A stretch of DNA of 64,000 bases from Desulfobaccales bacterium (GCA_049585595.1 JBAVAG010000025.1:17632-81631); one strand, 5' to 3'. Counted from the stretch's first letter, positions 7,728 to 35,912 are shown. Made by a program: numbers and translations. The notes: generated from the sequence alone by a model not told the origin.

Positions 7728-7845
7728 GGCAATTTTCCGGAGGCGAATGGAAGCCGGCGTCACTTCCACCAATTCATCGTGGTTGCTGAACTCCAGGGCT
7801 TCCTCCAGGCTAAAGTGTCTGGCGGGGACGAGCCGCAAGGGGCTT
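7728..7845 (-). pseudogene. displaced 3'-end fragment of typA
   Basis: 51 nt identical and the next roughly 65 nt about 85% identical to 34137-34254, the real typA 3' end. Translates to ...[39 protein letters not shown]. Confidence 0.8.
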
Positions 7846-7939
7846 CCCCGCTCCCTGTTTGCCGTGCCCGCCGCGGGTAATTAACTCATATCGATAATTT
7901 TAGACGCTGCGAAGATCAGTGCTAGTTTTGGCAAGTTAG

Positions 7940-8035
7940 TCGCTACCTGTGCCATGCTCATTTCACTGCTATGACTGGGAACTTATCAAGACTCTGAAAA
8001 CTTCCCCTATCCAGATCATATCCGGAATTTTTTCT
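7940..8035 (-). pseudogene. IS3-family transposase (OrfB, DDE/rve) relic
   Basis: About 80% identical over about 68 nt to 29118-29185. The minus-strand translation contains a D-x-DRGS-like stretch interrupted by stops. Confidence 0.4.
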
Positions 8036-8759
8036 TTCTGATGATGGAGCAATAATTTAATATAAAAAATTTTATATCAATAATTCTTAGCAACAATTTT
8101 CTCTGTCCATATTAGAGCCTTAGCTCTTTTCTTGTCCTTCCCCGTTAGAATCTGTTTGACATAATAATCACAATCTTTTGGTTTGTCACTATTGCCGCAA
8201 TTCCTTATCCTGTATTTTAGGAGGGAAGCCTTATCTTGCATCTTGGGAGGGAAGCTATAAGCTCAAGATTTTCCTAAATTCTATCCAAGCCGCAGGTTGC
8301 ATGAAGAATAAGGATTATGGTTATCTTCCAGACCATTTTGCCATGGTCTCTCGCCGGGATTTCTTCAAGTTCTGTGATTTATCTAGGTCAAGTTCTGCAA
8401 ATTGGTTCGGGTATACGGGGTTTATTAGTTCTCCCGAGCCGCAGGGTTGAGCCGCGGAGGGCCGCGAGAATGGGCCCTCAGGTTCCAGATCCTAGTCAAA
8501 GTTTCGGGTTTATCAAGTTAACTAGATGTCACCCCTTTGCAACTATAAAAAGGAATATTACAAAAATGGGATTTTTAACAGAAATGCAACTTACCTTCTT
8601 GCGCGAACCTCATTCGGACCAAAAGGAGGACTCGTTTACTTTTACAATCTGTAAAAAATATTGACAATTCCCCCGCGGGAGGAACGGGGAGGCTGGGGGG
8701 ACTTGATTAAAGGATATTAATTTTCAACCAGTTGCCCCAGACAACCTTTGCCCGGGGTT

Positions 8760-8775
8760 TGGCACGGCCGTTGCT
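8760..8775 (+). promoter_or_regulatory. sigma54 (-24/-12) promoter
   Basis: TGGCACGGCCGTTGCT matches TGGCACG-N4-TTGCW exactly. It lies about 135 nt upstream of the receiver gene that heads the hdr-met cluster. Confidence 0.6.
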
Positions 8776-8910
8776 ATCCTAAAACCCGGGAGAAGGCGAT
8801 GCCAGTGATCGTCCTACGGAAGAGGGTTATTTTCGATCTAAAAAAGCCGGGGGATAACCTCCCTTACCTGGGTCTTTATCGTTCAAGACAGCATAGGAGC
8901 CTGAGGGCGA

Positions 8911-9306
8911 ATGGCCACAACGGAACGGGTTTTAGTGGTAGATGATGAACTGGATTTTGTGGAGACCATTGTCAAACGCCTGCAGGTCCGAAATATCAAG
9001 GCCAGCGGCGTCGACAGCGGCCCCAGAGCCCTGGAACTGCTTAATGAGCAGGACTTTGACGTGGTAATCCTGGACCTCAAGATGCCGGGGATGGACGGCA
9101 TCGAAACCCTGGTGGAAATGAAAAAAAAGAAGCCCCTGATGCCGGTGATCATGCTCACCGGCCATGCCACGGTGGCATCGGGGATCCAAGGCATGAAGTT
9201 GGGGGCCTTCGCTTACGTGATGAAGCCTGTGGCCCTGGACGAGCTGTTGGAGAAGATCCACAAGGCTCAAGAAAGAAAGCTGATCCAGGAAGGTCAGACT
9301 GAGTGA
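8911..9306 (+). CDS. stand-alone response-regulator receiver (CheY-like)
   Basis: VLVVDDE...DVVILDLKMPGMDG...MLTGH...K pattern. No output domain. Confidence 0.85.
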   Translation: MATTERVLVVDDELDFVETIVKRLQVRNIKASGVDSGPRALELLNEQDFDVVILDLKMPGMDGIETLVEMKKKKPLMPVIMLTGHATVASGIQGMKLGAFAYVMKPVALDELLEKIHKAQERKLIQEGQTE

Positions 9307-9404
9307 CCCTGCCTTTCTCAAAGGCGGGGCGGCCCTTGCTTCCGGGGTTGGTCCATCTTGGGGCCTAATCCCAAACAAATTACCGATTAACGGAAAAAAA
9401 GATA

Positions 9405-10298
9405 ATGAGCCCTGACATGCTAGCAAAACCGACGATCAGCAGCACAGAGAGGTTTTCTGTCAAGCGGGACCGCTCCCTGGCTTCTGAGGTTATTTGGCGG
9501 AGCGGCACGGATTTGAATAAATGTTTTCGCTGCGGCACGTGCGCCAGTGGGTGCCCCTTCATCCAGGCCATGGATTATCCTCCTTTCGGGGTCTTATCGC
9601 TATTGAAGTACGGTATGCGCCAGGAGGCCCTGAGCAGTGTGACGATCTGGATGTGCGTGGGCTGCCATACCTGCTCCAGCCAGTGTCCCATGACCATTGA
9701 CATGGCGGCGGTTATGGATACCCTGCGCCACATGGCCCTGGAGGAAGGGGTGGTCCTGGCTCAGCCGGAGCCCCAGGTGCCGGCGGTGCACCGGCATGGG
9801 TGTGGGCCACTGGAAGTCCTGGTGAGGAACGGCGGTCTGAAAAATATTGCCAAGAGAAAACTCAATGGCTTGAAGTTTGTGCCTAATTACGGGTGCACCT
9901 CCTTTCGGCCACCCCAGTACCATAAGCAGGGGAAATTCATTGAGGGCGAGATGGAACGAGTCCTGATCGCCTTGGGGGCCCAGCCCCTGACCAGGACTTA
10001 CACCAATCGCTGCTGTGGCTCTTTCCTGGCCGCCAGCAGGCCGGATATCGCCACTCCCATGGTCAATACGATCATTGAAGGCGCCCAGGCCGTAGGCGCG
10101 GATTGCATCATCACGGCCTGCGCCACCTGTCAGCTCAATCTGGAGGATCGTTGTACTCTGGAAAAGAAGCTGCCCGTGTTCCATTTTTCAGAAATCCTGG
10201 CTCTGGCCTTGGGGCAAGAGTACGAGGGGTGGCCCCAACACCACCTTGTAGATCCGCAACCAATACTGCAGAAACTGGGATTGGCCAAGGAGCAATAA
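9405..10298 (+). CDS. HdrC-like 2x[4Fe-4S] domain fused to a single HdrB-type CCG domain (paralog 1)
   Basis: CFRCGTCASGCP and CVGCHTCSSQCP ferredoxin motifs, then NYGCT...RCCGSF...ACATCQLNLE (one CCG domain). Confidence 0.75.
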   Translation: MSPDMLAKPTISSTERFSVKRDRSLASEVIWRSGTDLNKCFRCGTCASGCPFIQAMDYPPFGVLSLLKYGMRQEALSSVTIWMCVGCHTCSSQCPMTIDMAAVMDTLRHMALEEGVVLAQPEPQVPAVHRHGCGPLEVLVRNGGLKNIAKRKLNGLKFVPNYGCTSFRPPQYHKQGKFIEGEMERVLIALGAQPLTRTYTNRCCGSFLAASRPDIATPMVNTIIEGAQAVGADCIITACATCQLNLEDRCTLEKKLPVFHFSEILALALGQEYEGWPQHHLVDPQPILQKLGLAKEQ

Positions 10299-10343
10299 GT
10301 TTTTGGGGTAATTTAGTCCGGATAGCTAAACGGAGAAAGGACC

Positions 10344-11243
10344 ATGGCCCAACCCAACATTCCGGCAATACCCATAGACAGCAAGAAAGTAATTTTTCCT
10401 ACCAAGTGGGACCGCTCCCTGGCTACTGAGGTTATTCGACACAGCGGCACGGACCTGAATCAATGTTTTCGCTGCGGCACGTGCGCCAGTGGTTGCCCGT
10501 TCATCCGGGCAATGGATTATCCTCCTTTCGGGGTTTTAATGCTATTGCAGTACGGTTTACGCCAGGAGGCCCTGAGCTGTGCGACGATCTGGATGTGCGT
10601 GGGCTGCAATACCTGCTCCAGCGAGTGTCCCATGGCCATTGACATGGCAGCGGTGATGGATACCCTGCGCCACATGGCCCTGGAGGAAGGGGTGGTCCCG
10701 GCTCATCCGGAGCCCCCGGTGCCGGTGGTGCACCGGCATAGCTGTGGGCCATTGGAACTCCTGGTGAGGGATGTCCAGCGTCTGAAAGATACCGCCAAAA
10801 GGAACCTCAATGGCTTGAAATTTGTGCCTAATTACGGGTGCACTCTCTTTCGCCCACCCTGGCACCAGAGGCAGGGGAAATTCATCTGGGGCGAAATGGA
10901 ACGAGTCCTGAGCGCCTTGGGGGCCCAGCCCCTGCCCAGGGCTTACTCCAATCGCTGCTGTGGTTCTTTCCTGGCCGCCAGCAGGCCGGATATTGCCACT
11001 CCCATGGTCAATATGATCATTGAAGGCGCTCAGGCCGCAGGCGCGGATTGCATCATTACGGCCTGCGCCACCTGTCAGCTCAATCTGGAGAATCGTTGTA
11101 CGCTGGAGAAGAAGCTGCCCGTGTTCCATTTTTCAGAAATCCTGGCCCTGGCCTTGGGGCAAGAATATGAGGGATGGTTCAGCCGCCACCTGGTGGGTTC
11201 GGATCCGCAGCCGATGCTCCAGAAACTGGGATTGGGCGGCTAA
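10344..11243 (+). CDS. HdrC-like 2x[4Fe-4S] domain fused to a single HdrB-type CCG domain (paralog 2, tandem duplicate)
   Basis: Same architecture as 9405-10298 and about 85% identical to it. Confidence 0.75.
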   Translation: MAQPNIPAIPIDSKKVIFPTKWDRSLATEVIRHSGTDLNQCFRCGTCASGCPFIRAMDYPPFGVLMLLQYGLRQEALSCATIWMCVGCNTCSSECPMAIDMAAVMDTLRHMALEEGVVPAHPEPPVPVVHRHSCGPLELLVRDVQRLKDTAKRNLNGLKFVPNYGCTLFRPPWHQRQGKFIWGEMERVLSALGAQPLPRAYSNRCCGSFLAASRPDIATPMVNMIIEGAQAAGADCIITACATCQLNLENRCTLEKKLPVFHFSEILALALGQEYEGWFSRHLVGSDPQPMLQKLGLGG

Positions 11244-11297
11244 CAATTTTTGAGAGGGTCGCCAAATTAGCAACATTTACCAACCTTAGAGGCCTTT

Positions 11298-14200
11298 ATG
11301 AATGACAAATTACTTGGATCTGTAATGGTCGTCGGCGGAGGAATCGCCGGGATGCAGGCCGCCTTAGACATAGCCAATTCAGGCTATTACGTCCACTTGG
11401 TGGAAAAGGGGCCAGCAATCGGCGGGGTCATGGCGCAGCTCGACAAGACCTTCCCCACCAATGACTGTGCCATGTGAATTATCTCTCCCAAGCTGGTCGA
11501 GGTCGGCCGGCATATTAACATTGAGGTGCATCCTCTGACAGAGGTGCAGGAGATTACCGGGGAGCCGGGAAATTTTACAGTCACCTTAGAGAAGCAGCCC
11601 CGGTATGTCGATCTGTCCAAGTGTACGGGCTGCGGGGATTGCGCCAAAGCCTGTCCGGTAGTCATTAAAGATGAATTTAATCTGGGGCTGGCGGATGGTC
11701 GGGCTGCCTATCGCCTCTATCCACAAGCCATTCCCTCGGCCTTTTCCATCCTGAAGGCGTCCCGGGCCCCGTGTACCCGCACCTGTCCCGCCGGGATTAA
11801 TGTTCAGGGTTATGTGCAGCTTATCAAGATGAGGAAATATGAAGAGGCCCTGAAGCTCATTATGGAGCGGCTGCCTTTTCCTGGATCCCTGGGGCGCATT
11901 TGCCCCCATCCCTGCGAGGAAAAATGCCGGCGTCAGGAGATGGATGATCCGATAGCTATTTCCTGCCTGAAGCGGTTCGCGGCTGACCAAGTGGATGTAG
12001 GCCAAATCTCCTTCCCCAAAGCCGATCCCCGGAAAGAAAAGGTGGCCATCATCGGTGCCGGTCCGGCCGGGTTGACCTGCGCCTATCATCTGACCCTGCG
12101 GGGCTATCCGGCCACTGTCTTCGAGGCCCTGCCTAAGCCCGGGGGCATGCTGATGGTAGGGGTTCCGGAATATCGCTTACCCCGAGACGTCTTGGAAAAA
12201 GAGATTAACAACATCCTGAGCCTGGGGGTGGACCTGAAGACCAATATGGCCCTGGGGCGGGACTTTACCCTGAAGGAGCTGTTTGACCAGGGATACAAGG
12301 CAGTTTTCCTGGGCCTAGGTTGCCATAGAGGACTTCCCCTGGGGATTCCGGGAGAGGAAGCCGAGGGGGTCATGCAGGGGGTAGAGCTCCTGCGCCGGCA
12401 TAGTCTGGGACTACCCCTGACGGTGGGCAAACAGGTGGCGGTCATCGGCGGCGGTAACGTGGCTCTGGATGCCGCTTGCACCGCCCGGCGTTACGGCGCC
12501 AACGTCACCATTGTCTATCGCCGCTCCCGGGAGGAGATGCCCGCCCATGCCTGGGAGATCGACCAGGGATTGTGCGAAGGCGTGAGCATCCATTATCTGG
12601 TGGCGCCCTCTAAGGTCTTGTCCGAAAATGGGCGGGTCACCGGGCTGGTCGTTCAGAAAATGGAATTAGGACCGCCGGATGCCTCCGGACGGCGCCGCCC
12701 GGAACCCATCCCGGGATCAGAGTTCGAGCTGCCGTATGACATGGTGGTCCCGGCCATTGGCCAGGCCGCCGGGCTGGATCCTTTAAAGGATGATGGCATT
12801 AAATTCAGCAGTCGTGGAACCATTGAGGTGGACCCGTTGACTTACATGACCTCTCGGATGGGGGTCTTCGCCGCCGGGGATGTCCAATCCGGTCCATGGA
12901 TTGCCGTGGAGGCGATAGGCGGCGCCATTGAGGCGGCGGAGTCCATCCATCGTTATCTCCGGGATATGGATTGGGTTGCCGGTCGCATCAAAGGCGTTGA
13001 TGCCGAGGTCCGCTGGCGGGACCTTCCTAAAGACAGGTGGGGGCGGCCCCGAGAATCTATGGTCACCATCCCCCCGGAGGTCTCTTCCATCTGCTTTGCC
13101 GAGATTGCCCAGGGTTTTACCGAGGAACAGGCCCTGGAGGAAGCGGACCGCTGCATCAACTGCGGCATCTGTTCCGAATGTATGCAGTGTGTGGCAGCCT
13201 GCCAGGCCGGGGCCATCGACCACAGCCAACAGCGCCGGATAATGGACCTTAATGTGGGTTCTGTGGTGCTGGCGCCTGGCTTCCGAGCCTTTGATCCTAG
13301 CGATTATGGAAAATTTCAGTATGCCTCCCATCCCAATGTGGTGACCTCCCTGGAGTTTGAACGGATGCTTTCGGCCGGAGGGCCTTTTGCCGGGCATTTG
13401 ATCCGGCTCTCGGACCATAAAGAGCCCAAAAAGATCGCCTGGTTGCAATGCGTCGGCTCTCGCGACCTGAATCAATGTGAAAAAGGCTATTGTTCCGCGG
13501 TGTGCTGCATGTATGCCGTCAAACAAACAATGATCGCCAAAGAACACAGCAAGGAACCTCTGGATACCGCCATCTTCTTTATGGATATGCGCACTCCTGG
13601 TAAAGGGTTTGAGAAGTATTATTGGCGGGCCCAGGATGAGCTTGGGGTGCGGTTTGTCCGCTCCCGGGTACATAGTATCGAGCCGGTCCCCGGTACCGAT
13701 GATTTGACGGTGAAGTACTGGTCTGAAGACGGCTCTTTAAACACGGAATCCTTTGATATGGTGGTTCTTTCCATCGGGATGGTGATCCCCCCGGACACCG
13801 TGAAAATGGCTAAGAAGTTAGGGATAGAGCTGAGCCCCAATAACTTTGTGAGTGCAAGCTGCTTTGACCCGGTGGCCACTTCCCGGCCCGGGGTTTATAC
13901 CTGTGGAGCGTTTACCGGTCCCAAGGATATCCCTCAGTCGGTCATGGAGGCCAGCGCGGCCGCGTCGGCTTCAACCAGGGCTTTGGCTGCGGCCCGGGGC
14001 ACCTTGCAAAAGAAAAAGGAATTCCCGCCAGAGACGGAAGTGGCAGGGGAGCCAGCCAGAATTGGCGTGTTCGTTTGCAACTGCGGCATTAATATCGGCG
14101 GCATTGCCGACGTACCTGCCATCGTGGAATACGCCAGGACCATTCCCAATGTGGAATACGCGCAAGCCAACCTCTTCAGTTGCTCTCAAGACGCGCAGAA

Positions 14201-15737
14201 GCAGATGGCAGACGTAATCCAGGAACAAAAGCTGAACCGGGTGGTGGTGGCTGCCTGCAGCCCTTCCACTCACCAACCTATCTTCCAGGATATGCTGAGA
14301 AATGCGGCCTTGAACAAATATCTCTTTGAGATGGCCAATATCCGCAATCAGTGCACCTGGTGCCACCAAGCGGAGCCTGAGGCGGCCACGGAAAAATGCA
14401 AGCTCCTGGTCAATATGGCGGTGGCTAAGGCCCGGTTGCTCGAGCCCCTGGAATACATCACGGTGGACGTGACCCATAAGGCCTTGGTAATAGGCGGTGG
14501 CGTGGCGGGCATGGAAGCCAGCTTGGCCCTGGCCGATCAAGGTTATGATGTGCACCTGGTGGAGCGGCAGCCATTCCTGGGAGGTCAGGCTCTCAACCTC
14601 CATAGCACCTGGAAGGGAGAAAAAGTCCGTCCTTATGTCGAGGGTTTGATCGAAAAGGTAGCTAGGCATGACAAGATAGCCGCCCATTTAGGGTCCAACG
14701 TTACCGAGGTCCACGGGGTCGTTGGTAACTTTGCCTCGAAACTCTCCCCTGAGAATGAGGAGATCCATCACGGCATCGTCATTTTTGCCACCGGAGCTGA
14801 ACCTTATGAGCCAGAAGGCCAATTTCTGTATAAGCAAAATCCGAATGTCCTCCTTTCCCTGGACCTGGATCGGGAAATAGCCCAGGAAAGCGAGCGGCTC
14901 AAGAGCGCCGGAGCGGTAGCCTTCATCCAGTGTGTGGGCTCACGCATCCCGGAAAGGCCGTATTGCAGCAAGGTTTGCTGTTCCCATTCCGTGGAGAATG
15001 CTCTGAGGCTTAAAGAGATGAATCCGGAGAAGGATGTCTACATCATCTACCGGGATCTGCGGACCTATGGGGAAAGGGAAACCTTGTATGAAAGGGCTCG
15101 GGAAAAAGGGGTGCTTTTCTTCCGTTATGACCTGGAGGATCCACCCCTGGTGGAAGATGCCGACGGCAAAATAATCATCAAGGTCATGGATCGTGCCCTG
15201 AAGAGGCCGATAGAGCTAACCCCCGACCTCCTGGTTTTGGCTACCGCCATTGTGCCTTATGACAATACCCGCATTTCTGAACTTTACAAGGTTCCGCTTA
15301 GTTCCGAGGGCTTTTTCAATGAGGCGCACGCCAAGATCAGGCCGGTGGACTGTGCCACCGAGGGCATCTTTCTGGCAGGGCTCTGCCATTTCCCCAAACC
15401 CATAGATGAGTCCATTGCCCAGGCATTGGCGTCTGCCTCCAGGGCGTCCACTATATTGTCGAGGGATTCCCTGGAACTGGAATCCACCGTCTCCCGCCCC
15501 ATTGATGAGAACTGCGACGGCTGCGCCTTCTGTATAGACACCTGTCCGTTTAAGGCTATAACGCTGCTAGAATACATGAAAGAGGGAGGGGTGAAGAAGA
15601 CTGTAGAGATTAACGCGATCCTTTGCAAAGGTTGCGGCTCATGTATGGCCACCTGTCCCAAGCAGGGCATCAATATTGCTGGGTTTACGATGGCCCAGTT
15701 GGGTGCCCAGGTAGAGGCGGCGCTCGGATTAATCTAA
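11298..15737 (+). CDS. giant HdrA-like flavoprotein with inserted GltD/NfnB-type NAD(P)H module ('HdrL' type); in-frame TGA (probable selenocysteine) at 11475-11477
   Basis: ATG 11298 is in frame with track ORF 11526-15737. N-terminus MVVGGGIAGMQAAL..TFPTNDCAM-TGA-IISPKL, whereas paralog 17755-22236 has TFPTNDCSTCLISPKL (Cys). Contains GltD-like CPAGINVQGYV..VAIIGAGPAGL, HdrA blocks WLQCVGSRD..CCMYA and FIQCVGSR..CC, and a C-terminal 2x[4Fe-4S] domain. Confidence 0.8.
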
Positions 15738-15758
15738 GGCTAAAAAAGGAGTGCTAAG

Positions 15759-16178
15759 ATGAGCGACCAATATGAACCACTAGTGATCTCCTTCTGTTGC
15801 AACTGGTGTTCCTATGCCGGGGCAGATCTCGCAGGGGTCTCCAGGATTCAGTATCCGCCGAACGCGGTTATCATCCGGGTGATGTGCTCCGGGATGGTCC
15901 ATCCCAATCTGGTGATCGACGCCTTTACCAAAGGAGCTGACGGCGTCCTGGTATGCGGCTGACACCTGGGCGAATGTCATTACCTGGATGGTAATAAAAA
16001 AGCGAAAGACAGGGCAGAAGCTTTAGAGTTAATGTTGGAGGACTTTGGTTTGGAGCCGGAGCGCTTCCGCCTGGAGTGGATTTCTTCCTCGGAGGCCCAG
16101 AAATTCGCGGACGTGATGCGGGATATGATCGAGACGGTGCGGGCCTTGGGCCCCAGCTCTTATAGCACCAGGGCTTGA
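15759..16178 (+). CDS. mvhD: MvhD-type [2Fe-2S] subunit; in-frame TGA (probable selenocysteine) at 15960-15962
   Basis: Track ORF stops at ...[12 protein letters not shown]. The same frame continues [21 protein letters not shown]...[11 protein letters not shown]...LGP to TGA 16176-16178. The TGA occupies the Cys of the MvhD G-C-x3-C-H motif. Confidence 0.75.
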
Positions 16179-16270
16179 CTTGGCGCAGGCAGTTTAAGCC
16201 TGCGGCCACAATCTTTTTTTTATAATGGGAAATAGACCAATCGAGATCTCTTAAACAGGAGTTAATCCTG

Positions 16271-16852
16271 ATGGAAATCAACCTGAACCAACCGCTGGTT
16301 CCTTCTTTTTCCCTACAGGAGCGCCTGGCCGGGGCAGGGGCCACGCCGGTGTCTTCCTGTTATCAGTGTAAGAAGTGCTCCGCGGGCTGTCCTCTGACCT
16401 TTGCCATGGATCTGCTCCCGGACCGGGTCATGCGCCTGGCCATCCTGGGTCAGACGGAAGCGCTCTTGGGCTGCCGGACCATTTGGGTCTGCGCCGCCTG
16501 CGTCACTTGCAGCACCCGCTGTCCCAACGGCATTGACATCGCCGGGGTCATGGACCGGCTCAAGCAAGAGGCGCTCCGGCAGGGCAAAGCCATCGATCAA
16601 CCGGAGGTGGCGGCCTTCCATCGCTTCTTCCTGGACAGCGTCCGCCGGGCTGGCGGCCGCCTACCGGAAATGGCGCTGATGCGCCGCTTTACCCTGTTTA
16701 AACTTCGGCGGCGGCCCCAAATCGGAGAGCTTTGGGAAAATGCCAAACTTGGCTGGGGCCTCTTCAAACGCGGCCGGCTACGTCTATCAGGCCCCCCGGC
16801 CCTCAAGGGGCGGGATGAGATCAAAAAAATCTTTAAGAACACGGGGGCTTAA
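16271..16852 (+). CDS. hdrC: heterodisulfide reductase subunit C-like protein
   Basis: CYQCKKCSAGCP and CAACVTCSTRCP motifs, size about 190 aa. Confidence 0.8.
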   Translation: MEINLNQPLVPSFSLQERLAGAGATPVSSCYQCKKCSAGCPLTFAMDLLPDRVMRLAILGQTEALLGCRTIWVCAACVTCSTRCPNGIDIAGVMDRLKQEALRQGKAIDQPEVAAFHRFFLDSVRRAGGRLPEMALMRRFTLFKLRRRPQIGELWENAKLGWGLFKRGRLRLSGPPALKGRDEIKKIFKNTGA

Positions 16853-16859
16853 GGCACTC

Positions 16860-17696: not shown

Positions 17697-17754
17697 TGAG
17701 CAGGCGTGGTCTTCCCCTACCGAACCACAACGCCCATCAAAATGGAAAAAACTT

Positions 17755-22236: not shown

Positions 22237-22239
22237 GAG

Positions 22240-22680: not shown

Positions 22681-22696
22681 AACTGGCGGTGCAAAG

Positions 22697-24254: not shown

Positions 24255-24272
24255 GATAGTGGGGAAACTCTC

Positions 24273-25520: not shown

Positions 25521-28447
25521 ATATTGCCCATTCCCTGAAACCGGTGAATGTCTTGTTAATGCATGGCCCGGAGCTGGTCGCGGCGGGGCTCGACCCCCAG
25601 GACTTTTGTCAGGCAGTGGCGAGCTTACCGAATTGTCGGGTGTTGCCCGTGGATCCGGCCTGGCCGGCTGCAGAGCAAGAGGAGCAAGTGCGCAGCTTCC
25701 TCAGCCAGGACCAGGAGGTCAATCCGGTTATCCTGGCGGCCAAAGATCCAGAGCATCGGGGGGCCGGGGTAGCCCGCCTGTTACGGGAAGAGCTGGGATT
25801 GAACCCGGAATGCCTCATGGCGGTGGACCTGACCGCAGCCCTGGAACTCCCGGACCAAAGCGCCCGGACCGCGAAAGTGCTGGAAATGATTCGCCTGGCG
25901 GCCTCGCAAGCCAGCATGACCAGGCCCATTATCCCCCAGGCAATCCCGGTCAGCCGTCAAGTTCTGGTTTGGGGCGATTCCATTGCCGGTTTGAAAGCTG
26001 CCTGGGATTTGGCAGAGGTGGGCTATCCGATTATCCTGGCGAACCCCAAGCCGGCTCTCAACCCCTTACCCTTGGAGTATACCGAGGACCCGGCTGAGCT
26101 TAACTCTCTGGCCCGGCAGGTCCAGGAACACCACCTGATCAGGACGGTTTCTGCCGCCCGGGTCAAAGATTTCGGCGGGGTCGCCGGCAATTTCACCCTG
26201 CGTCTGGAGACGTCGCAAGGACGCCTAACCGATAAGGTGGGCGCGGTGGTTTTGGCCCCTGAGCTGGAGATGCAAGAAGCCCCCCACCGTTACCACGCTC
26301 CCGAACATCCCTCGGTGATCTCCCAGACCCAGCTGGAAATGCTGCTGACTGGCGTTTTCGAAGAGGATCTGCCAGAAACTGTGGCCATCCTGGTGGGTCT
26401 GGCCGGGGAGAGCCATCCCCTGGCCCTGGGGAGGGCTCTGAGGGCGGCATCCCGCCTGCTGGCGGCCGGCAGCCGGGTCTACCTGTTGGTGGGCAACGCC
26501 AAGCTGGCGGACCCGGGCCTGCAGCGGGCCCTGCAGGCCAACCAGGAGGCCGGTTTGCAGCTCATCAAGCTGAAAGAGTGCCCTACTGTTAGCGTCATGG
26601 ACGGGGGTCTGGGGGTGGCCTTCTTTGAGCCGGCCATCCGCGAGAATCTGGTTCTGCCAGTTGACCTGGTAGTTTATGATGAACAATACCAAGCCGCCGG
26701 GGGAAACGCCGGGGTGGCCGAACTTCTCCGCCTGCCCTTAGGAGCCGGGGGTTTTCTCCAGTCCGGCAATGTCCACCACACCCCGGTGGCCACCAGCCGA
26801 CGGGGCATTTATGTCATCGGACCAGGCCGGGGGATCATGGACCCGGAAGGGACCGACACCGATATAAGTGTCGCCGTTAATGAGATTCAGAGCCTCCTGG
26901 CCCAGGGCGAAGCCGTCGCGCCCCAGGGACGGGCCTCAGTGGACCGGGGCCGGTGTGTCATCTGCCTGACCTGCTACCGGCTCTGCCCTCACGGTGCCAT
27001 CACCTGGGACAATCGGGCCATCATCAATGAACTGGCCTGCCAGGGCTGCGGCATTTGCGCCAGCCAGTGCCCCAACGACGCCATTCAGGTCTGGAATTTC
27101 ACCGATGACCAAGTGGCGACGCAATTGGCGGCCTTCGATCCCCAATTGAGTCCCCGGATTGTGGCCTTCATGTGCCGCAACTCCGCCTGGGAGGCCTATC
27201 AAACCGCGGTGAAGCTCCATCATGCCTCTCTGCCGCTGGGCTTCACTCCCATCAAAGTGCCTTGTGCCGGCAAGGTTGACCCTGATTATTTGCTGCAGAC
27301 CTTTGCCTCCGGGGCCGACGGCGTGCTGGTCCTCTCCTGTCCCCAGGACAACTGCAAATCCACCCATGGTAACCTGTACGCCGAGTGGGGGGTGGAGCAG
27401 GTCCAGGGGCTCCTGGCTGAAGCCGGCATTGATCCCGGCCGGCTCCTGTTCCGTTCCCTGGCCGCCAACGCCCCCCGAGACTTGATCGACGCGGTGGATC
27501 AGGTGATGGCCAACCTCAGCCTCTCGGCCGCGGAAACGGACGAAGATTATCCTTTCTGGCTGACTACCGGGGCCAGCTTTACCCAGCATTTCAGCGGCGC
27601 CAAGAGTCAGCGTCAGCCCGTTCTCCCTCAGGAAAGCCGGGAGGTCTGCATCGAAATGCATTCCCAGGATGCCCGGGACTTGGGAATTCAGTCGGGAGAA
27701 CCAATCAAGGTTAACAGCCGCCAGGGCGCGATCACGGCCACCGCCCGGTTAACTGATCGGCTCAAGCCGGGCGCGGCCTTTATGCCGAGGCACTTCCTGG
27801 GGGACGTAGTTAACTGCCTGGTCAATTCGCCTCTGGACCCCATCGCCAGGATGCCAGCATATCATGGGTGTGCAGTCAATTTAGAAAAGTTGGTCGAGCA
27901 ACTTGAGGAAGTCTTTGGCATTAAGGTGCCGCCTTCCCGCTACCTCCACCGGGGTCATACCTGGGTGGCCTTGGAGAATGGCGGCAGGGTGCGCCTGGGC
28001 ATGGATGACTTTTCCCAAAAGGTCCTGGGTCCCGGCGATGAAATCAGGCTGCCGCTAATCGGGGAGGAAATTCGCCATGACCAGGCGGCGCTGGCCCTAT
28101 TCCGCCAGGGGAAAAAGGCCGCGGTCCTGGCGCCTCTGGACGGTATCATCGAAGCGGTGAATCCCAAGGTCCTGGCAAGACCGGGGCTGGCCCATGACGA
28201 CCCTTACGGCGAAGGCTGGCTAATGGTCGTCGCCGCCACCAATCTGAAGTCGGACCTGAAAAACCTGGTCTCCGGCGAGGGCAAGGGGCCTTGGCTAGAA
28301 GAGGAGTCCCTCAGGCTCCTGGCCATGCTGGAACCCTCGGTGGGCGCCGCCCTCCAGTCCGACCGGACGATCATCGATGACGTCTACGGTCAGTACCCCG
28401 AATTAGGCTGGGAGCGCCTGGCAAAGGAGTTCCTCCGGTCCGCCTGA
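25517..28447 (+). CDS. 976-aa mosaic protein: degenerate HdrA-like region, 2x[4Fe-4S], MvhD-like domain, molybdopterin-dinucleotide-binding (MopB C-terminal) barrel and GcvH-like domain
   Basis: GTG 25517 overlaps the upstream stop (GTGA); the start is uncertain. Motifs seen: CVICLTCYRLCP and CQGCGICASQCP; RIVAFMCRNSAW..GADGVLVLSCPQDNCKSTHGN; YPFWLTTG...DARDLGIQSGEPIKVNSRQG...PGAAFMP; HTWVALENGGRVRLGMDDF...DDPYGEGWL. Confidence 0.7.
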   Translation: MNIAHSLKPVNVLLMHGPELVAAGLDPQDFCQAVASLPNCRVLPVDPAWPAAEQEEQVRSFLSQDQEVNPVILAAKDPEHRGAGVARLLREELGLNPECLMAVDLTAALELPDQSARTAKVLEMIRLAASQASMTRPIIPQAIPVSRQVLVWGDSIAGLKAAWDLAEVGYPIILANPKPALNPLPLEYTEDPAELNSLARQVQEHHLIRTVSAARVKDFGGVAGNFTLRLETSQGRLTDKVGAVVLAPELEMQEAPHRYHAPEHPSVISQTQLEMLLTGVFEEDLPETVAILVGLAGESHPLALGRALRAASRLLAAGSRVYLLVGNAKLADPGLQRALQANQEAGLQLIKLKECPTVSVMDGGLGVAFFEPAIRENLVLPVDLVVYDEQYQAAGGNAGVAELLRLPLGAGGFLQSGNVHHTPVATSRRGIYVIGPGRGIMDPEGTDTDISVAVNEIQSLLAQGEAVAPQGRASVDRGRCVICLTCYRLCPHGAITWDNRAIINELACQGCGICASQCPNDAIQVWNFTDDQVATQLAAFDPQLSPRIVAFMCRNSAWEAYQTAVKLHHASLPLGFTPIKVPCAGKVDPDYLLQTFASGADGVLVLSCPQDNCKSTHGNLYAEWGVEQVQGLLAEAGIDPGRLLFRSLAANAPRDLIDAVDQVMANLSLSAAETDEDYPFWLTTGASFTQHFSGAKSQRQPVLPQESREVCIEMHSQDARDLGIQSGEPIKVNSRQGAITATARLTDRLKPGAAFMPRHFLGDVVNCLVNSPLDPIARMPAYHGCAVNLEKLVEQLEEVFGIKVPPSRYLHRGHTWVALENGGRVRLGMDDFSQKVLGPGDEIRLPLIGEEIRHDQAALALFRQGKKAAVLAPLDGIIEAVNPKVLARPGLAHDDPYGEGWLMVVAATNLKSDLKNLVSGEGKGPWLEEESLRLLAMLEPSVGAALQSDRTIIDDVYGQYPELGWERLAKEFLRSA

Positions 28448-28523
28448 TAGCGGGTCCGCCAGAGGTTTATGACGGTTTAGGCAGGCTAAAGCCTGCGGCT
28501 ACCAAGGGCATATAGGCAGACGG

Positions 28524-28887: not shown

Positions 28888-29190
28888 TCAATTCTTGTTG
28901 CCTAATCCAGAATTAGTTCTCATAAACCTCTGCCGGAGTCCTTCATTATAGAAGCGGAAGTAACACCAGACCTCCTGCATAGCCCAAGGCACCGATGCGT
29001 AATCTTTGGGGTGAAATTCCTTATATTTCAAAGAGAGCCCTAAAATTTCGGTGAAGATGTTATCCTTCGCCTGGCCACAACCAAGCATGCTGCCGATAAC
29101 CCCCATAGCGGCTTTCTGCTATGATTCGGGACTTATCAGGAAATTAAAAACTTCCCCTATCCGAATCATATCTGGAATTTTTTCCACACC
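28888..29190 (-). pseudogene. IS3-family transposase OrfB C-terminal relic
   Basis: The minus strand reads ..DRGSFFNFL..*..GSMLGCGQAKDNIFTEILGLSLKYKEF...VWCYFRFYNEGLRQR. This resembles SDRGSQY...SMSRKGNCWDNA..ESFF..LK.E.......YI.FYN..R.H, with stops and a truncation. Confidence 0.5.
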
Positions 29191-29386: not shown

Positions 29387-29485
29387 ATGGACCTTGTTTG
29401 GGTAACTATCACCCTGCTTTTCTTTGTGATTTGCCTGCTGTACGTCGGCTTCCTGGCCAATGAGGGCAAAACATGGAAAACCTGA
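29387..29485 (+). CDS. putative 32-aa hydrophobic peptide upstream of kdpF
   Basis: MDLVWVTITLLFFVICLLYVGFLANEGKTWKT. Overlaps the kdpF start. An analogous peptide gene precedes kdpF of the second operon. Confidence 0.35.
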   Translation: MDLVWVTITLLFFVICLLYVGFLANEGKTWKT

Positions 29486-29556
29486 TCGTGGGCCTGGTGG
29501 CCTTCGCCCTGTTTATCTATCTTTTTGTGGTGCTGCTGCGCCCGCATAAGTTTTAA
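29473..29556 (+). CDS. kdpF: KdpF
   Basis: MENLIVGLVAFALFIYLFVVLLRPHKF, the typical 27-aa KdpF ending RP-x-x-F. Lies 15 nt upstream of kdpA. Confidence 0.7.
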   Translation: MENLIVGLVAFALFIYLFVVLLRPHKF

Positions 29557-29571
29557 CCCGGGGATGCCGTA

Positions 29572-31374
29572 ATGAATGCCAGCGGTTGGACCCAATTAAT
29601 TCTCTTCAGCGTCATCCTGCTGGCCCTCACCAAGCCCATGGGGCTATACCTGGTGCAGGTGCTGGATGCCAACGGCCGGACCTTCCTCGACCCGGTCTTA
29701 AAGCCGGTGGAGCGCCTGATCTATCGCCTGGCGGGCATCGATCCGACCAGGGAGCAGGACTGGAAAGGCTACGCCATCTCCGTCCTGATCTTCAGCCTGG
29801 TCACCATGATGTTGACCTATTTCATCCTGCGGCTGCAATACCTTCTGCCCCTTAACCCCCAGGGTTTTGCCGGGGTGGCCGGGGATCTTTCCTTTGAGAC
29901 CGCGGCCAGCTTCCTCGCCAACGCCAGCTATCAGAACTATATCGGTGAAAACACCATGTCCTACCTCTCCCAGATGGTGGCCCTGGCCTCACACTGCTTT
30001 TTCTCAACGGCCACGGCCATCGCTGTCGCAGCCGCCCTGGTGCGGGGTCTCGCCCGGGATAAGGCTGCGACCCTGGGGAATTTCTGGACCGACATGATCC
30101 GCAGCTGCCTTTACCTGCTGCTGCCCATCTCTCTGGTGTTTGCCGTGTTTTTGGTCTCCCAGGGGATGATCCAGAACTTCAGCGCCTACACCACGGCCCA
30201 GGTGATGGAACCTGTTACCACCCAGGTCGCCAAGAAGGACGCCAGCGGCCAGGAGGTCAAGGACGCCCAGGGCAACACGGTGCTGGAGAATGTTAAGGTG
30301 CGGACCCAGACCATCCCCCAGGGTCCCATGGCCTCCCAGGTATCCATCAAGATGCTGGGAAGCAATGGCGGCGGCTTCACCAACGCCAATGCCGCCCATC
30401 CCTTCGAGAATCCCACGCCGCTGTCGAACTTCATCCAGATGCTGTCCCTCTTCCTGATACCCAGCGGCCTCACTTATTACCTGGGCCGCCAGTTAAGGAA
30501 CCAGAAGCACGGCTGGTCGGTGTGGGCCGCTATGTTTTTACTCTTCCTGGTGGGCGTGCTCATCTGCTGGGGGGCGGAAACCTATGGCGACCCGCGGCTG
30601 ACGGCCCTGGGCCTCGACCCCACCACCAGCGCCATGGAAGGCAAGGAAGTCCGCTTCGGCATCTTTAATTCCGCTCTGTTTGCCACGATAACCACGGACT
30701 CCTCCTGCGGTGCGGTCAACGCCATGCTTGACTCCTTCACGCCCCTGGGCGGCCTGGTGCCGATGTTCAACATCCATCTGGGCGAGGTCATCTTCGGCGG
30801 CGCCGGGGCCGGCCTCTTCGGCATGCTGGTCTACGTGGTCCTGGCCATCTTCCTGGCGGGCCTGATGGTGGGCCGAACCCCGGATTACCTGGGAAAAAAG
30901 ATCGAGTCCTTCGACGTCCAGGTGGCGGCCCTGTCTATTCTGGTGCCCAGCGTCTTCCTGCTTGGCTTCAGCGCCTTGGCCGCCTCCAGCCAGTGGGGCG
31001 TCCAGCCTTTAGGCAATAGCGGACCCCACGGCTTCAGCGAGATACTCTACGCCTTCACTTCCTGTATCGGCAACAACGGCAGTGCCTTTGCGGGCCTGTC
31101 GGCCAACACCCTCTAGTATAACCTGACTCTGGGGCTGGCCACCCTGGTCGGCCGCTTCTTAACCATCGTGCCGGTATTGGCGCTGGCGGGCAGCCTGGGG
31201 GCCAAAAAGACCATGGCGGTGAGCCCCGGCAGTTTTCCGGTTTCCGGGGTCACTTTTACCCTTCTCCTCGTGGGCACCGTCATCATTGTGGGAGCCCTGA
31301 CCTTCTTTCCGGCCGTCAGCCTGGGTCCCATTGTGGAGCACTTCATCATGATTAATTCTAACAAGTTATTCTAA
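29572..31374 (+). pseudogene. kdpA: KdpA (K+-translocating subunit) interrupted by one in-frame TAG at 31114-31116
   Basis: Track ORFs 29572-31116 and 31168-31374 share a frame. The sequence across the stop, GLSANTL-TAG-YNLTLGLATLVGRF...GAKK...GALTFFPAVSLGPIVEH, is the conserved KdpA C-terminus. Confidence 0.7.
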
Positions 31375-31385
31375 GGGCTCCGACG

Positions 31386-33416
31386 ATGGCTGCCAAAGTA
31401 AAAGCACTTTCATTGTTTGATAAGACGATCCTGATCCCGGCGATCGGGGATTCCTTTCGGAAGCTTGACCCCCGCGTGATGGTTCGCAATCCGGTGATGT
31501 TTGTGGCATTGGCGGGAGCTGTGGTGACGACGGCCAAACTCTTTTACACCCCTTTACATGGCGGGTCTTGGGGTTTCTTTCTGCAGATCGCTCTGTGGCT
31601 CTGGTTCACGGTGCTGTTCGCCAACTTTGCCGAGGCCATGGCGGAAGGGCGGGGCAAGGCCCAGGCGGCCACCCTGCGCAAGGCTCGGACCCAGGCCATT
31701 GCCCAGCGTCGGCTGCCCGACGGGGTCATCGAGCCAATCCCGGCAGAGGCCCTGCGTAAAGGCGATATCTTCGTGGTTAAGGCCACTGAGGTGATTCCGG
31801 CAGACGGCGAAATTATCGAAGGCGTAGCCACAGTGAATGAATCGGCCATCACCGGTGAGTCGGCCCCGGTGATTCGCGAGGCCGGCGGCGATCGCAGCGC
31901 CGTTACCGGCGGCACCCTGGTGCTCTCCGACGAGATTGTGGTGCAGGTCACCGCCAACCCCGGGGAGAGCTTCATGGACCGGATGATCGACCTGATCGAA
32001 GGCGCCAGCCGGCAGAAGACCCCCAACGAAATCGCCCTGACCATCCTGCTGGCGGCCCTGACTATCATCTTTCTGGTGGCGATCGTCACCCTGAAGCTCT
32101 TTGGTGCTTATGCGCGGGTGGACTTCTCCGTCCCAGTGCTGGCCGCCCTGCTGGTCTGCCTGATCCCCACCACCATCGGCGGCTTGCTTAGCGCCATCGG
32201 CATCGCCGGCATCGACCGGCTGGTGCGGCAAAACGTCTTGGCCATGAGCGGCCGCGCCGCCGAAGCTGCCGGTGATGTGGACGTGCTCCTGCTGGACAAG
32301 ACCGGCACCATCACCCTGGGCAACCGCCAGGCGGTGGAGTTCCTCCCGGCCCCGGGAGTCGATGTTAAAGAACTGGCCAACGTGGCACAGCTCGCCTCCC
32401 TGATCGATGAAACGCCCGAAGGACGCAGCATCGTGGTACTGGCCAAGCAATACGGCCTTAGGGGGCGGGAGCTGCATGAGTTTCCTGGTGCCGAGTTTGT
32501 CCCCTTTAGCGCCAGGACCCGCATGAGCGGCCTCAATGTCGAGGGCAAGCAATACCGCAAGGGCGCCTCGGATGCCGTACAAGAGTTCGTCGGCAAGCCG
32601 CTGCCTCCGGAGGTAGATGCTGAGATCCAGCGCATCGGCTCCCTGGGCGGCACCCCCCTGGTGGTCGCCAGTGCCGAAACGATCTATGGAGTGGTCTATC
32701 TCAAGGACATCGTCAAGGGCGGCTTGGCGGACCGATTCCTGCGCTACCGGGCCATGGGCATCACCACCATCATGATTACCGGCGACAATCCCCTCACTGC
32801 CGCGGCCATCGCCAAGGAAGCCGGGGTCGATGATTTCCTGGCCCAGGCCAAACCGGAGGACAAGCTGGCCATGATTCACCGGCAACAGGCAGCCGGACAC
32901 CTCGTGGCCATGACCGGCGACGGCACCAACGACGCCCCGGCCCTGGCGCAGGCCGACGTGGGCGTGGCCATGAACACCGGCACCCAGGCGGCCAAAGAGG
33001 CTGGCAACATGGTGGATCTAGATTCTAACCCCACCAAACTTATCGAGATCATGGAGATCGGCAAACAGCTTCTCATGACCCGGGGAGCCCTCACCACCTT
33101 CAGCGTCGCCAACGACGTAGCCAAATACTTTGCCATCATCCCGGCCATGCTGGTGGGGACCTTCCCCCAAATCGCCCCCTTCAATCTTATGAAACTGGCC
33201 TCGCCGGCCAGCGCCATCCTCAGTGCGGTGATCTTCAATGCCCTGATCATCATTGCCCTGATTCCCCTGGCGCTGAAAGGCATCAAGTTCCGCCCCTTGG
33301 GAGCCGCCGCGGTGCTGCGGCGCAATCTGCTGATCTATGGCCTGGGCGGCGTCATCGTGCCGTTTATCAGCATCAAGCTCATCGACTTGACAGTCGCCGC
33401 CCTGCACCTGGTCTGA
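31386..33416 (+). CDS. kdpB: KdpB P-type ATPase subunit
   Basis: DKTGTIT, MITGDN and TGDGTNDAP motifs, 676 aa. Confidence 0.95.
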
Positions 33417-33429
33417 GAGAGAATGAGAT

Positions 33430-34026
33430 ATGAATATCCGAGGACTGCTTCAGGAAATCAAGGTTTCGACCCTGGTCACCCTGGCCCTGGTGATCATCTT
33501 GTGCGGCGTCTATCCCCTGGCAGTTTGGGGCATCGCCCAGGTGGCCTTTCCCAGTCAGGCCAACGGCTCCCTGATATATGTAAAGGGACAGGCCATCGGC
33601 AGCCGCTTGCTGGCGCAGAACTTCAGCGGGCCGCAGTATTTCCACCCGAGGCCCTTGGCCGCCGGCGCTACAGGCTACGACGGCACAAGCTCCGGCGGAA
33701 GCAACCTGGGACCACTGTCCCGGAAGCTCACCGATCAGGTGAAGGAGCGGGTGGAGAAGTATCGCGCCGAAAATAACCTGCCGGCCGGAACCCTGGTTCC
33801 CGCCGATGCCGTGACCGCCTCCGGCAGCGGCCTGGACCCCCACATCAGTCTGCGCAATGCCGCTTTTCAGGCCACTCGGGTTGCCCAGACCAGAAAGTTG
33901 AGTGAAGATCAGGTCAAGGGCCTCCTGCAAAAATATACCGAAGGGCCTGACCTGGGCATCTTGGGAGAGCCCGGGGTCAATGTGCTGCGGCTCAATCTGG
34001 CACTGGACGCACTTCCGGTAAAGTAA
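33430..34026 (+). CDS. kdpC: KdpC
   Basis: Typical 198-aa KdpC: N-terminal TM helix, [18 protein letters not shown]. Confidence 0.9.
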
Positions 34027-34130
34027 GACAGTTTTCGGTAGTAGGGGCATAGGTGGCGATATCTGCTCTATATCTCCGCACTTCACCAGCAGGGTTTTGG
34101 AGTGCTGAAATGCTCATCAGGGCCGCGCCT

Positions 34131-35912
34131 TCATCCGGCAATTTTCCGGAGGCGAATGGAAGCCGGCGTCACTTCCACCAATTCATCCTGGTTGATAAAC
34201 TCCATGGCCTGTTCCAGGCTGAACTGTCTGGCGGGGACGAGCCGTAAGGCCTCATCGGTGCCTGCGGCCCGCATATTGGTGAGTTTCTTCTCCTTGGTAA
34301 TGTTCACCATCATATCTTCGGACCGGGTATTCTCCCCGATAATCATGCCCTTATAAACCGGGTCTCCGGGCTTCACGAAAATAGTCCCCCGGGGCTGCAG
34401 GTGAAAGATGGCATAAGCCACCGCCTTCCCGGGCCGGTCGGCGACCAGGACCCCGTTGGGCCGGCCGCTGATCTCACCCATGACCGGAGTGAAGCCCTCC
34501 AGGATGGTGTTCAAGAGCCCGGTGCCCCGGGTATCGTTCAAAAACTGGCCGCGAAAACCGATCAGACCGCGGGAAGGGATTTCAAACTCCAGGCGCACCC
34601 GGCCGAAGCCGTGATTGATCATCTTGACCATCCTTCCGCAACGGGCGCTCATCTGTTCGGTCACAATCCCGATGAACTCCTCGGGGATGTCCACCACGGC
34701 CAGTTCCACCGGCTCTGACAGCACTCCATCCCGCTCCCGGGTAATAACCCTCGGTTTGGACAGAGACAGCTCAAACCCCTCCCGGCGCATCATCTCTATA
34801 AGCACTGCCAGTTGGAGCTCCCCCCGGGCGCTCACCTTGAAGGCGTCCCGGCTTTCCGCCGGCTCCACTCGGATGCTCACGTTGTAAAGAATTTCCTTAT
34901 CGAGGCGCTCCTTGAGGTGGCGGGAAGTGAGCAGCTTGCCTTCCCGGCCGGCCAAAGGAGAGGTATTCACGGAGAAGACCATGGAAATGGTCGGCTCTTC
35001 CACCTTGATAGGGGGCAGCGGCCGCGGGTCCTCGGGATCGCCCAGGGTGTCGCCGATGAAGGCCTGGGGCACCCCGGCCACCGCGGCGATATCCCCGGCC
35101 GCAATCGCCTCCGGCTCGAGGCGGTCCAGTCCCTCGAAACTGTAAAGGACGGTGAGACGGGCCTTCCCGGCGAGGTCCCCTTGTTTCAACAGAGCTACGT
35201 CCTGGCCCCGGCGCAGCGTGCCGCTCACCAGTTTACCTACGGCGATCAGACCCACATAATCGCTGTAATCGAGGCTGGTGACCAGAAACTGCAAGGGAGA
35301 CGACGGCTCAAAGGACGGGGCGGGGATGGCGGAGAGAATGGCGTCAAACAAGGGCGCCAGGTCCCGGCCCTCCCCGGCCGGGTCATTGAGGGCAATGCCG
35401 GCCTTGGCGTTGGTATAGAGCACCGGAAAATCGAGTTGCTCTTCGGTGGCGTCGAGGTCGATGAACAGATCGTAGATCTCGTCCAGAACCTCCTTGACGC
35501 GGCGGTCGGGGCGATCGATCTTGTTGATGACCACGATTACCGGCAGGGCCTTCTCCAGGGCCTTTCCCAGGACAAACCTGGTTTGGGGCAGCGGGCCTTC
35601 GGTGGCGTCCACCAGCAGCATGACCCCTTCCACCATATTCAGGGTGCGTTCCACCTCGCCTCCGAAATCGGCGTGGCCCGGGGTGTCCACGATATTGATC
35701 TTTACCCCTTTATAAGTGATGGCCATGTTCTTGGCCATGATAGTGATACCCTTTTCCCGCTCCAGGTCCAGGCTGTCCAGGACCCGCTCCGCCACCTGCT
35801 CGTTTTCTCGAAAGATGCCGCTTTGCCAGAGCATGGCATCGGCCAGGGTGGTTTTGCCGTGGTCGACGTGGGCGATAATGGCCAGATTTCGCAAATCTTC
35901 ACGAATACGCAT
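34131..35912 (-). CDS. typA: translational GTPase TypA/BipA
   Basis: [33 protein letters not shown]. Start set at MRIREDL. Confidence 0.95.

Follow-up and report, generated by a model that had tools for sequence, protein, structure and literature searches.

When the 3' end of a gene is found a second time, in the same orientation and some 26 kb away from the intact gene, the question arises whether the DNA in between entered the chromosome as an integrative island. Such a locus is present in a stretch of 64,000 nt from an uncultured Desulfobaccales bacterium (GCA_049585595.1, JBAVAG010000025.1:17632-81631), which we call the window and whose positions are used as coordinates throughout. The gene is typA (bipA), which encodes a translational GTPase; the displaced copy of its 3' end is designated copy A, the 3' end of the gene itself copy B, and the DNA between them the bracket. 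The first-pass annotation, made from the sequence alone, interpreted the bracket as an island that had been integrated at the typA 3' end and had lost its integrase. We have found that the bracket is a patchwork of native-looking gene blocks and not one mobile island arriving together. Copy A is, in the reading that we favour as the probable one while leaving considerable room for doubt, the relic of an ancestral insertion at the typA 3' end, after which the cargo varied and a 51-nt tract of perfect identity was produced by gene conversion.

The repeated 3' end of typA

The direct repeat pairs 7718-7840 with 34127-34249, giving an ungapped alignment of 123 nt with 89% identity at an offset of 26,409 nt. 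Its perfect tract is exactly 51 nt long (7728-7778 and 34137-34187) and begins 6 nt before the typA stop codon ends (the TGA of 34131-34133 on the minus strand), and the 67 nt beyond it contain 10 mismatches (85% identity); these proportions, as well as the two peptides quoted in the first-pass annotation, were reproduced exactly. The repeat is not due to chance, because its blastn E value is about 1e-40, and it is not an assembly artefact, because both copies are the same, base for base, in at least five independent assemblies of the species. A single 30.8-kb contig of the same species covers the region from the DASS anion transporter gene to the left of copy A through typA, and the integrated arrangement is present in all same-species contigs.

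Copy B (34127-34254, minus strand, including the perfect tract at 34137-34187) is the 3' end of an intact typA gene (34131-35984, minus strand), whose 617-aa product has the GTP_EFTU, EFG_C and BipA_C domains; an exact database match to this 617-aa form was not obtained, as the database entries use a start that gives 593 aa. Copy A (7718-7875, minus strand) corresponds to TypA residues 573-616 plus the stop-codon position, and can be divided into the perfect tract (7728-7778), a diverged arm (7779-7845) and an indel-bearing start (7846-7875). Even when taken alone, it is scored as a TypA C-terminus, both by Pfam BipA_C (positions 70-106 of 110, E = 1.6e-9) and by NCBIfam TypA_BipA (positions 550-593 of 594), and when an indel of five codons is allowed, its protein homology extends to approximately 7875, i.e., to residue 573 (AAGT). 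Further typA homology, upstream of residue 573, was found neither for copy A nor for the corresponding fragments of the two related species designated R2 and R3 below, and the fragment was at no stage demonstrably longer.

Copy A is a gene fragment, because it has no start codon and an in-frame stop lies just upstream. It bears the lineage-specific LVPAR (GCC) state that is present also in typA of the window and of a further relative, R1, which indicates that the fragment derives from the typA of this lineage; the repeat is a true duplicate of the gene's own 3' end. It is a non-functional relic of the last approximately 45 typA codons. Some annotation pipelines present it as a 40-aa "BipA_C" open reading frame (ORF), and it should be labelled as a typA pseudogene fragment.

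Three short segments around the copies are useful as markers. The spacer downstream of typA (34068-34130, minus strand), which we call Z, is common to typA of R2 and to the R2 fragment. On the other side, a short non-typA segment, X (7876-7936, minus strand), is fused to the 5' side of the fragment; it is conserved among the window, R2 and R3, and in each of them its outer edge is sharp. At copy A the Z part has been replaced by a hairpin repeat resembling a miniature inverted-repeat transposable element (MITE) at 7595-7710, for which no strand is assigned and which has other copies at 48315-48430 and in the relatives. No tRNA, tmRNA or known RNA was found at either junction by Rfam and ARAGORN, nor any tRNA or tmRNA in the whole window, and promoter and terminator scans at Z and copy A gave nothing decisive.

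The locus in related genomes

Islands, including integrative and conjugative elements, that are inserted in the 3' ends of tRNA, tmRNA and protein genes leave a direct repeat of that end. The present locus resembles them in that part of the target gene's 3' end recurs at the far edge of the inserted DNA, the gene itself is intact, and the cargo found at this spot varies between related genomes. The comparators were R1 (contig L018), R2 (L098-L103 and L107), R3 (L105 and L106) and R4 (L113, L114 and L126). TypA identity to the window is 91-96% for R1 and 96% for R3, and R1 and R3 are 95-97% identical at the nucleotide level upstream of typA. R2 is a sister species of the window species, with 94% amino-acid identity in the DASS transporter and approximately 93% nucleotide identity over the genes for a CLC channel, an isocitrate/isopropylmalate dehydrogenase (IDH) and the DASS transporter, which lie to the left of copy A in the window.

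Synteny with these relatives breaks at the typA stop on one side of the bracket and at the fragment on the other. On the upstream side of typA, the window shares with R1 and R3 the gene order sensor kinase, kdpABC copy 2, typA, and this colinearity stops 18-33 nt past the typA stop; the DNA further downstream differs among the window, R1, R2 and R3. On the other side, R2 is colinear with the window through the sensor kinase, CLC, IDH and DASS genes and diverges at the stop of the DASS gene (6005-7426, plus strand, in the window). In R2 the DASS gene is followed by a gene with TIR_2, AAA_16 and TPR domains (L101 11785-14589) and then by a typA fragment oriented as copy A is (L101 14751-14971; 87% identity over 223 nt, X included), and beyond it HGD-D, BcrAD and radical-SAM genes are located instead of the hdr genes of the window. 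The R2 fragment is more complete than copy A, because approximately 65 nt of Z, the segment that is also present behind typA of the window and of R2, are retained in it. The typA gene of R2 is located at 3.36 Mb (plus strand) and the fragment at 0.40 Mb (minus strand) of the same 3.45-Mb contig, i.e., inverted and 2.96 Mb apart on the contig, or approximately 0.48 Mb if the contig ends are joined; guanylate cyclase and other genes lie beside R2 typA.

In R3, X and the first approximately 15 nt of the arm are found 7.7 kb downstream of typA in direct orientation (81.5% identity over 119 nt, E = 9e-25), and the remnant is truncated by the same type of MITE-like repeat; a NERD protein, hypothetical proteins including one of 556 aa, and an IS1595 transposase are encoded between typA and this junction. 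In R1, approximately 50 nt of the X-arm junction, a short remnant whose identification is less certain than that of R3, lie 6.3 kb downstream of typA, followed by the same MITE-like repeat, and the intervening genes encode hypothetical proteins, a carbonic anhydrase, a DUF308 protein and ABC ATPases. In more distant relatives X was not found, and in a metagenome scan with the 22-nt X-arm junction it was found only in the R2 contig, the three other matches being chance matches without further homology.

In the window, in R3 and probably in R1, the fragment is thus a direct repeat found a few kb (6-26 kb) beyond the typA 3' end, and the genes that separate the two are unrelated from one species to the next. 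Because such X-tail junctions downstream of typA enclose different genes, an ancestral insertion at the typA 3' end would be the most economical origin. The fragment predates the split from R2, because R2 carries it at the same DASS junction, and the comparison indicates that the fusion to X already existed when the window species separated from R2 and R3, and probably also when it separated from R1. The typA 3' end is thus an old insertion or variable spot that has been long-lived in one Desulfobaccales clade. The part of the first-pass interpretation that stands is such a spot at the typA end, with the break at the typA stop and the X-tail junction in three relatives; the attribution of this scar to the present 26 kb does not stand, as the fragment was already beside the DASS gene in the ancestor shared with R2.

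We also considered that no insertion had occurred at typA and that the fragment is a by-product of a duplication mediated by insertion sequences (IS) or MITEs, or of an inversion breakpoint, the 26-kb spacing being due to later shuffling. The region is dense in repeats and IS relics, the two R2 copies are inverted and far apart, and no relative with an empty site was found, all of which fits this explanation. It does not account well for the fact that the window, R3 and probably R1 all have the remnant on the downstream side of typA, 6-26 kb away and as a direct repeat; by our own estimate, placement within 26 kb in direct orientation would occur by chance with a probability of less than 1% on a genome of approximately 3.5 Mb. 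We regard this explanation as rather unlikely.

Several features of the relatives touch this locus in other ways. Defence-type genes are found here: the TIR_2/AAA_16/TPR gene stands between DASS and the fragment in R2, and the NERD-domain protein of R3, which has 1141 aa, is encoded directly after typA (L105 11899-15324). The MITE-like hairpin family, with arms GTCATYCTGAGSGARCGAAG..., is represented in the window (7595-7710 and 48315-48430), at L116 18603-18714, and by further copies at L105 approximately 19650-19720 and L018 approximately 18300-18370; in the window, R1 and R3 a copy abuts the typA fragment and has in every case removed part of it. The X-arm junction of R1 and R3 (L018 approximately 18215-18265 and L105 approximately 19575-19610) has turned into a perfect hairpin with a T-rich run behind it (GGCGGGGGAGCC-loop-GGCTCCCCCGCC-TTTGTTG), which resembles an intrinsic terminator made in part of former typA coding sequence. 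On the upstream side of typA, genes for HMA_2, MgtC, Nramp and MgtE proteins occupy 36000-40900 of the window, between typA and kdp copy 2; they are missing there in R1 and R3 and adjoin typA in R2, and therefore the upstream side also has indel polymorphism.

Origin of the perfect 51-nt tract

A perfect core next to a diverged arm had been taken as the mark of site-specific integration, and this interpretation is contradicted by R2, where the perfect tract covers the arm and the supposed core contains mismatches. In a common alignment of the fragments and typA copies, in which the arm comprises 57 nt and the "core" 51 nt, the window fragment differs from window typA at nine arm positions and no core positions, and the R2 fragment differs from R2 typA at no arm positions and five core positions. 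The longest perfect run of the window pair is 51 nt (columns 118-168, permutation P = 0.004, or 0.019 with arm and core only) and that of the R2 pair is 74 nt (columns 61-134, P = 0.0002, or 0.001 with arm and core only), in tests that span approximately 110-180 nt with few substitutions. The orthologous fragments of the window and R2, on the other hand, differ evenly along their length (P = 0.51). The 51-nt tract is thus not a recombinase core, because the position of a core should be fixed in every pair of attachment sites, yet it differs in R2.

Gene fragments that are kept partly identical to their parent gene by ectopic gene conversion are a known phenomenon, and states shared within a genome were found here at a few informative sites. 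Both typA and the fragment of R2 end in GGCTGG, against GCC(G/A)G(A/G) in all others, and both have G and T at alignment columns 167 and 169. Window typA has G at 34170 (column 135), as have both fragments, against A in typA of R1, R2 and R3; and Z of the window differs from Z of the R2 fragment at nine of 69 positions, against 18 of 69 for Z of R2 typA. In both tract length and within-genome derived states, the locus behaves as a conversion-homogenised gene fragment. It resembles other such relics in having patchy, significantly long tracts that differ between lineages, derived states shared by paralogues within one genome, and a fragment without an ORF; it differs in that the tracts are short (51-74 nt), that two species are concerned, and that the direction is read from few sites. 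We hold firmly, short of proof, that the 51-nt tract is an ectopic gene-conversion tract between relic and typA, and that such conversion occurred independently in two lineages. In the window lineage, it probably ran from the relic into the last codons of typA and the spacer behind them.

Absence of mobility genes and of foreign composition

An integrative island would be expected to have a gene for a site-specific recombinase within it or beside it. We searched all major ORFs between 2.4 and 36 kb with Pfam, and the non-coding stretches in six frames with Pfam and NCBIfam, and no integrase, excisionase, transposase domain or transfer/conjugation gene was found in the bracket, which agrees with the first-pass annotation as to the integrase. 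The sole tyrosine recombinase in the window is XerC-like (53631-54629, 320 bits against TIGR02224) and is part of a classic xerC-hslV-hslU arrangement (53.6-57.8 kb). The only traces of mobile DNA in the bracket region are relics of IS3-family elements and the MITE-like repeats.

A comparison of tetranucleotide composition between 7.9-34.1 kb and the flanks had been proposed as a check, and it revealed no foreign signal. The guanine-plus-cytosine content (GC) of the bracket, 0.591, equals that of the whole window, and tetranucleotide correlation with the whole window is 0.90-0.96 at 10-34 kb (4-kb windows), as in the flanks; only the non-coding spacer at approximately 7.4-8.9 kb deviates (r = 0.71 and GC 0.51 for 6-10 kb). 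There is no compositional sign of foreign DNA, and the composition of the bracket is native. Nothing in the locus appears to be mobile now; the activity remaining to the repeat could only be RecA-dependent conversion or deletion of the 26 kb.

The locus therefore differs from 3'-end islands in that integrase, excisionase and transfer genes are lacking in all four species, the composition is native, the identity tract is not fixed in position, and the scar is older than the cargo. Flanking direct repeats derived from the target gene are the feature that it shares with integrative elements; an integrase, an empty site, a fixed core, a differing composition and mobility genes are all lacking, and on these five grounds the present 26 kb is not classed as an island. 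We found no report of typA as an integration target in the literature. Another class for comparison is that of flexible or replacement islands, which are hotspots beside a conserved gene. The likeness is that typA and the X-fragment marker enclose unrelated cargo, whose length is 26.4 kb in the window but 7.7 kb and approximately 6.3 kb in R3 and R1, respectively; the difference is that the flank beyond the marker is not conserved in all species and that the R2 flanks are split by a large rearrangement. Any exchange by flanking homology at a typA hotspot would be hypothetical.

Gene blocks in the bracket

The gene content of the bracket had been described correctly, and its arrangement bears on whether the 26 kb moved as a unit. 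Beginning from copy A, X is followed by an AT-rich, gene-poor non-coding stretch (7937-8848, GC 0.43, no strand assigned) that lies upstream of a response-regulator gene, has an excess of promoter-like sites, and includes IS3 relic A, a piece of 69 nt resembling IS3 OrfB (7966-8034, minus strand; 84% identical to 29116-29184). The main block (8849-28467, plus strand) has the order response regulator-hdrCB-hdrA-mvhD-hdrCB-hdrA-mvhD-metV-metF-FAD/FeS-mvhD fusion. In the 1-kb spacer behind it lies IS3 relic B (28894-29184, minus strand), a relic of approximately 100 aa from the C-terminal third of IS3 OrfB, with a profile match at approximately 28942-29109 (minus strand, NF033516 positions 298-353 of 369, E = 0.003); its given extent includes the 69-nt repeat at 29116-29184, and the low end of the range is extrapolated. 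The last unit is kdpFABC copy 1 (29473-34026, plus strand), whose kdpA has an in-frame TAG at 31114-31116, as first noted, and which is only 36-56% identical to kdp copy 2 (40942-46031).

The claim that the whole electron-bifurcating methylenetetrahydrofolate reductase (MTHFR) module and the kdp operon arrived, or were shuffled, as one block is not borne out, because the hdr-metVF block recurs without kdp and with other neighbours. The 19.6 kb of 8849-28467 align with contigs L113 and L114 of R4 over 19.1 kb at 93% identity; the aligned region extends from 62 nt ahead of the response-regulator gene to 20 nt past the last gene, and the flanks beyond these boundaries are unrelated, with different neighbours on both sides and no kdp in the other contigs. 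Three genomes have three different downstream neighbours: NuoEF-like genes together with a further response regulator and a further MTHFR gene in L113, a P-type ATPase in L126, and the IS3 relic and kdp in the window. No protein of the block in the window is identical to its L113 counterpart. These sharp boundaries and varying neighbours make the hdr-metVF block a unit of its own. Nothing links the history of kdp copy 1 to that of the hdr block, no evidence was found for hdr-metVF travelling with kdp or on a mobile element, and movement of the 26 kb as a single block is not demonstrated, with no evidence for it and some against.

These results bear directly on the possibility that the whole 26.4 kb is a single island that entered by site-specific recombination at the typA 3' end, with the 51 bp as attachment core, the arm as a typA mimic carried by the element, and an integrase since lost. 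Direct repeats of a gene's 3' end do flank the DNA just downstream of that gene, with a perfect tract beside a diverged arm. The nearest relatives lack this content downstream of typA or of DASS, the best HdrA homologue listed for the 3.45-Mb contig of R2 is only 63% identical and lies in an unrelated context, and kdp copy 1 is a divergent paralogue of copy 2. We nevertheless judge the possibility to be quite unlikely, for the fragment and its DASS junction are older than the R2 split, the perfect tract lies elsewhere in R2, the bracket has neither integrase, excisionase and conjugation genes nor a GC and tetranucleotide composition different from the flanks, the hdr-metVF block has its own boundaries and kdp is unlinked to it elsewhere, and IS3 relics stand inside the bracket on either side of this block.

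The position of the two IS3 relics, which are in the same orientation around a 20-kb gene block, is the likeness to an IS3-family composite transposon, and the hdr-metVF block might have been brought in by such a transposon independently of the typA repeat. The sharp boundaries and the variable neighbours in other genomes would agree with this. The relics are tiny, the two that had been announced being only weakly supported as IS3 by the 69-nt length of relic A and the E value of relic B; no terminal inverted repeats or target-site duplications were recognised, and no IS3 was seen in the readable flanks of the block in other genomes. We consider a composite transposon possible, though unlikely. 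X was also examined as a possible part of an IS3 relic, and this was ruled out, as the homology between the two relics ends at 69 nt.

Side features of these genes deserve mention for annotation. The kdpA TAG is present in all same-species contigs examined and the reading frame is intact beyond it, so that the codon represents a nonsense mutation that has become fixed or else one that is recoded. KdpC of copy 2 (40942-41967, minus strand) is much longer than that of copy 1 (341 against 198 aa). The KdpC profile is matched by two separate parts of it, and R1 and R3 have the long form too. In the hdr block, in-frame TGA codons stand at conserved Cys positions at 11475, 15960 and 22435 (plus strand), in the contexts NDCAM[TGA]IISPK of the first large hdrA and VCG[TGA]HLGECH and VGG[TGA]EFGNCH of the two small mvhD/FlpD genes; they are probably selenocysteine codons, and for this reason ORF lists and several database annotations show these genes in pieces. 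The gene that closes the block (25457-28447) encodes a 996-aa fusion with ferredoxin, MvhD/FlpD, molybdopterin-dinucleotide-binding and glycine-cleavage-H-like domains, and its L126 counterpart has 789 aa with no GCV_H match recorded.

A probable history of the locus

The following history would accommodate these observations. DNA was most likely inserted by recombination at the typA 3' end with duplication of the typA tail, either through site-specific integration of an element carrying a typA mimic or through a Campbell-type event, in which a circle containing a piece of typA entered by a single homologous crossover. The displaced copy of the tail would have been left at the far edge of the insert, fused to the short foreign segment X. 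The interval between typA and the relic has since behaved as a variable region, whose cargo is now entirely different among the four species and into which IS3 and MITE-like repeats have cut. In R2, a large inversion may have separated typA from the relic and inverted them. The present 26.4 kb is a mosaic of an AT-rich spacer, the 19.6-kb block from the response regulator through hdr, metVF and mvhD, a second spacer, and a divergent kdpFABC with a nonsense codon in kdpA.

Several points weigh against this history. The direct adjacency of typA and DASS, which had been proposed as the decisive synteny comparison, was found in no relative examined, where other cargo follows typA or, in R2, the fragment stands without typA nearby; an ancestral insertion is to this extent not demonstrated. 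In DASS outgroups (86-87% nucleotide identity) no fragment was found within 0.5-1.9 kb after DASS, and either the window order or the R2 order may be ancestral, since setting the polarity would take an outgroup in which the fragment adjoins DASS. At the remnant, R1 and R3 are only 78% identical, against the 95-97% upstream of typA, and it is a possibility that this remnant travels with exchangeable DNA and is not strictly orthologous. R2 either lacks the hdr-metVF block or has it outside the readable part of its DNA: in the readable R2 DNA, which includes 6.4 kb to the right of the fragment, it does not lie between typA and the fragment, and it may be carried beyond. Pure neutral decay does not account for X having kept the same sharp edge in three species, and the identity-run tests draw on short sequences.

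A further possibility is that X, arm, core and Z together form the attachment region of an unrecognised family of integrase-less islands that target the typA 3' end in Desulfobaccales and would be mobilised in trans by a recombinase encoded elsewhere. We give this only a very slim chance. If it were true, species would exchange large metabolic modules in this way, and one of these would be the 20-kb HdrA-MvhD-MetVF block (electron-bifurcating MTHFR) with its selenoproteins.

Other repeats and riboswitches in the window

A second dispersed repeat of approximately 200 nt is present at 973-1176, 53356-53555 and 58066-58269, with a partial copy at 5782-5896; its members are 83-93% identical, occur in both orientations and have G/C-rich palindromic cores (CCCCCCTCCCTGAGAGGGGAGGGGG). 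On the minus strand, Rfam matches to the c-di-GMP-I-GGC riboswitch variant at 296-370 (72.6 bits) and 592-666 (65.2 bits), which both exceed the gathering score, form a tandem aptamer pair, each lying within a copy of a 91-nt direct repeat of 296-nt spacing (family D10). Between DASS and copy A there is, besides the MITE-like hairpin described above, a terminator-like palindrome.

Significance for the Desulfobaccales

The whole locus is an ordinary ancient evolutionary scar with a gene-conversion signature, and the bracket should not be called a genomic island. What it shows for the biology of these bacteria is that a short relic stays partly identical to its parent gene in two species, at different places in each. 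It shows also that the hdr-metVF block, which belongs to the methyl branch, is not tied to one chromosomal neighbourhood in this clade, and this bears on how modules of the Wood-Ljungdahl pathway are distributed.

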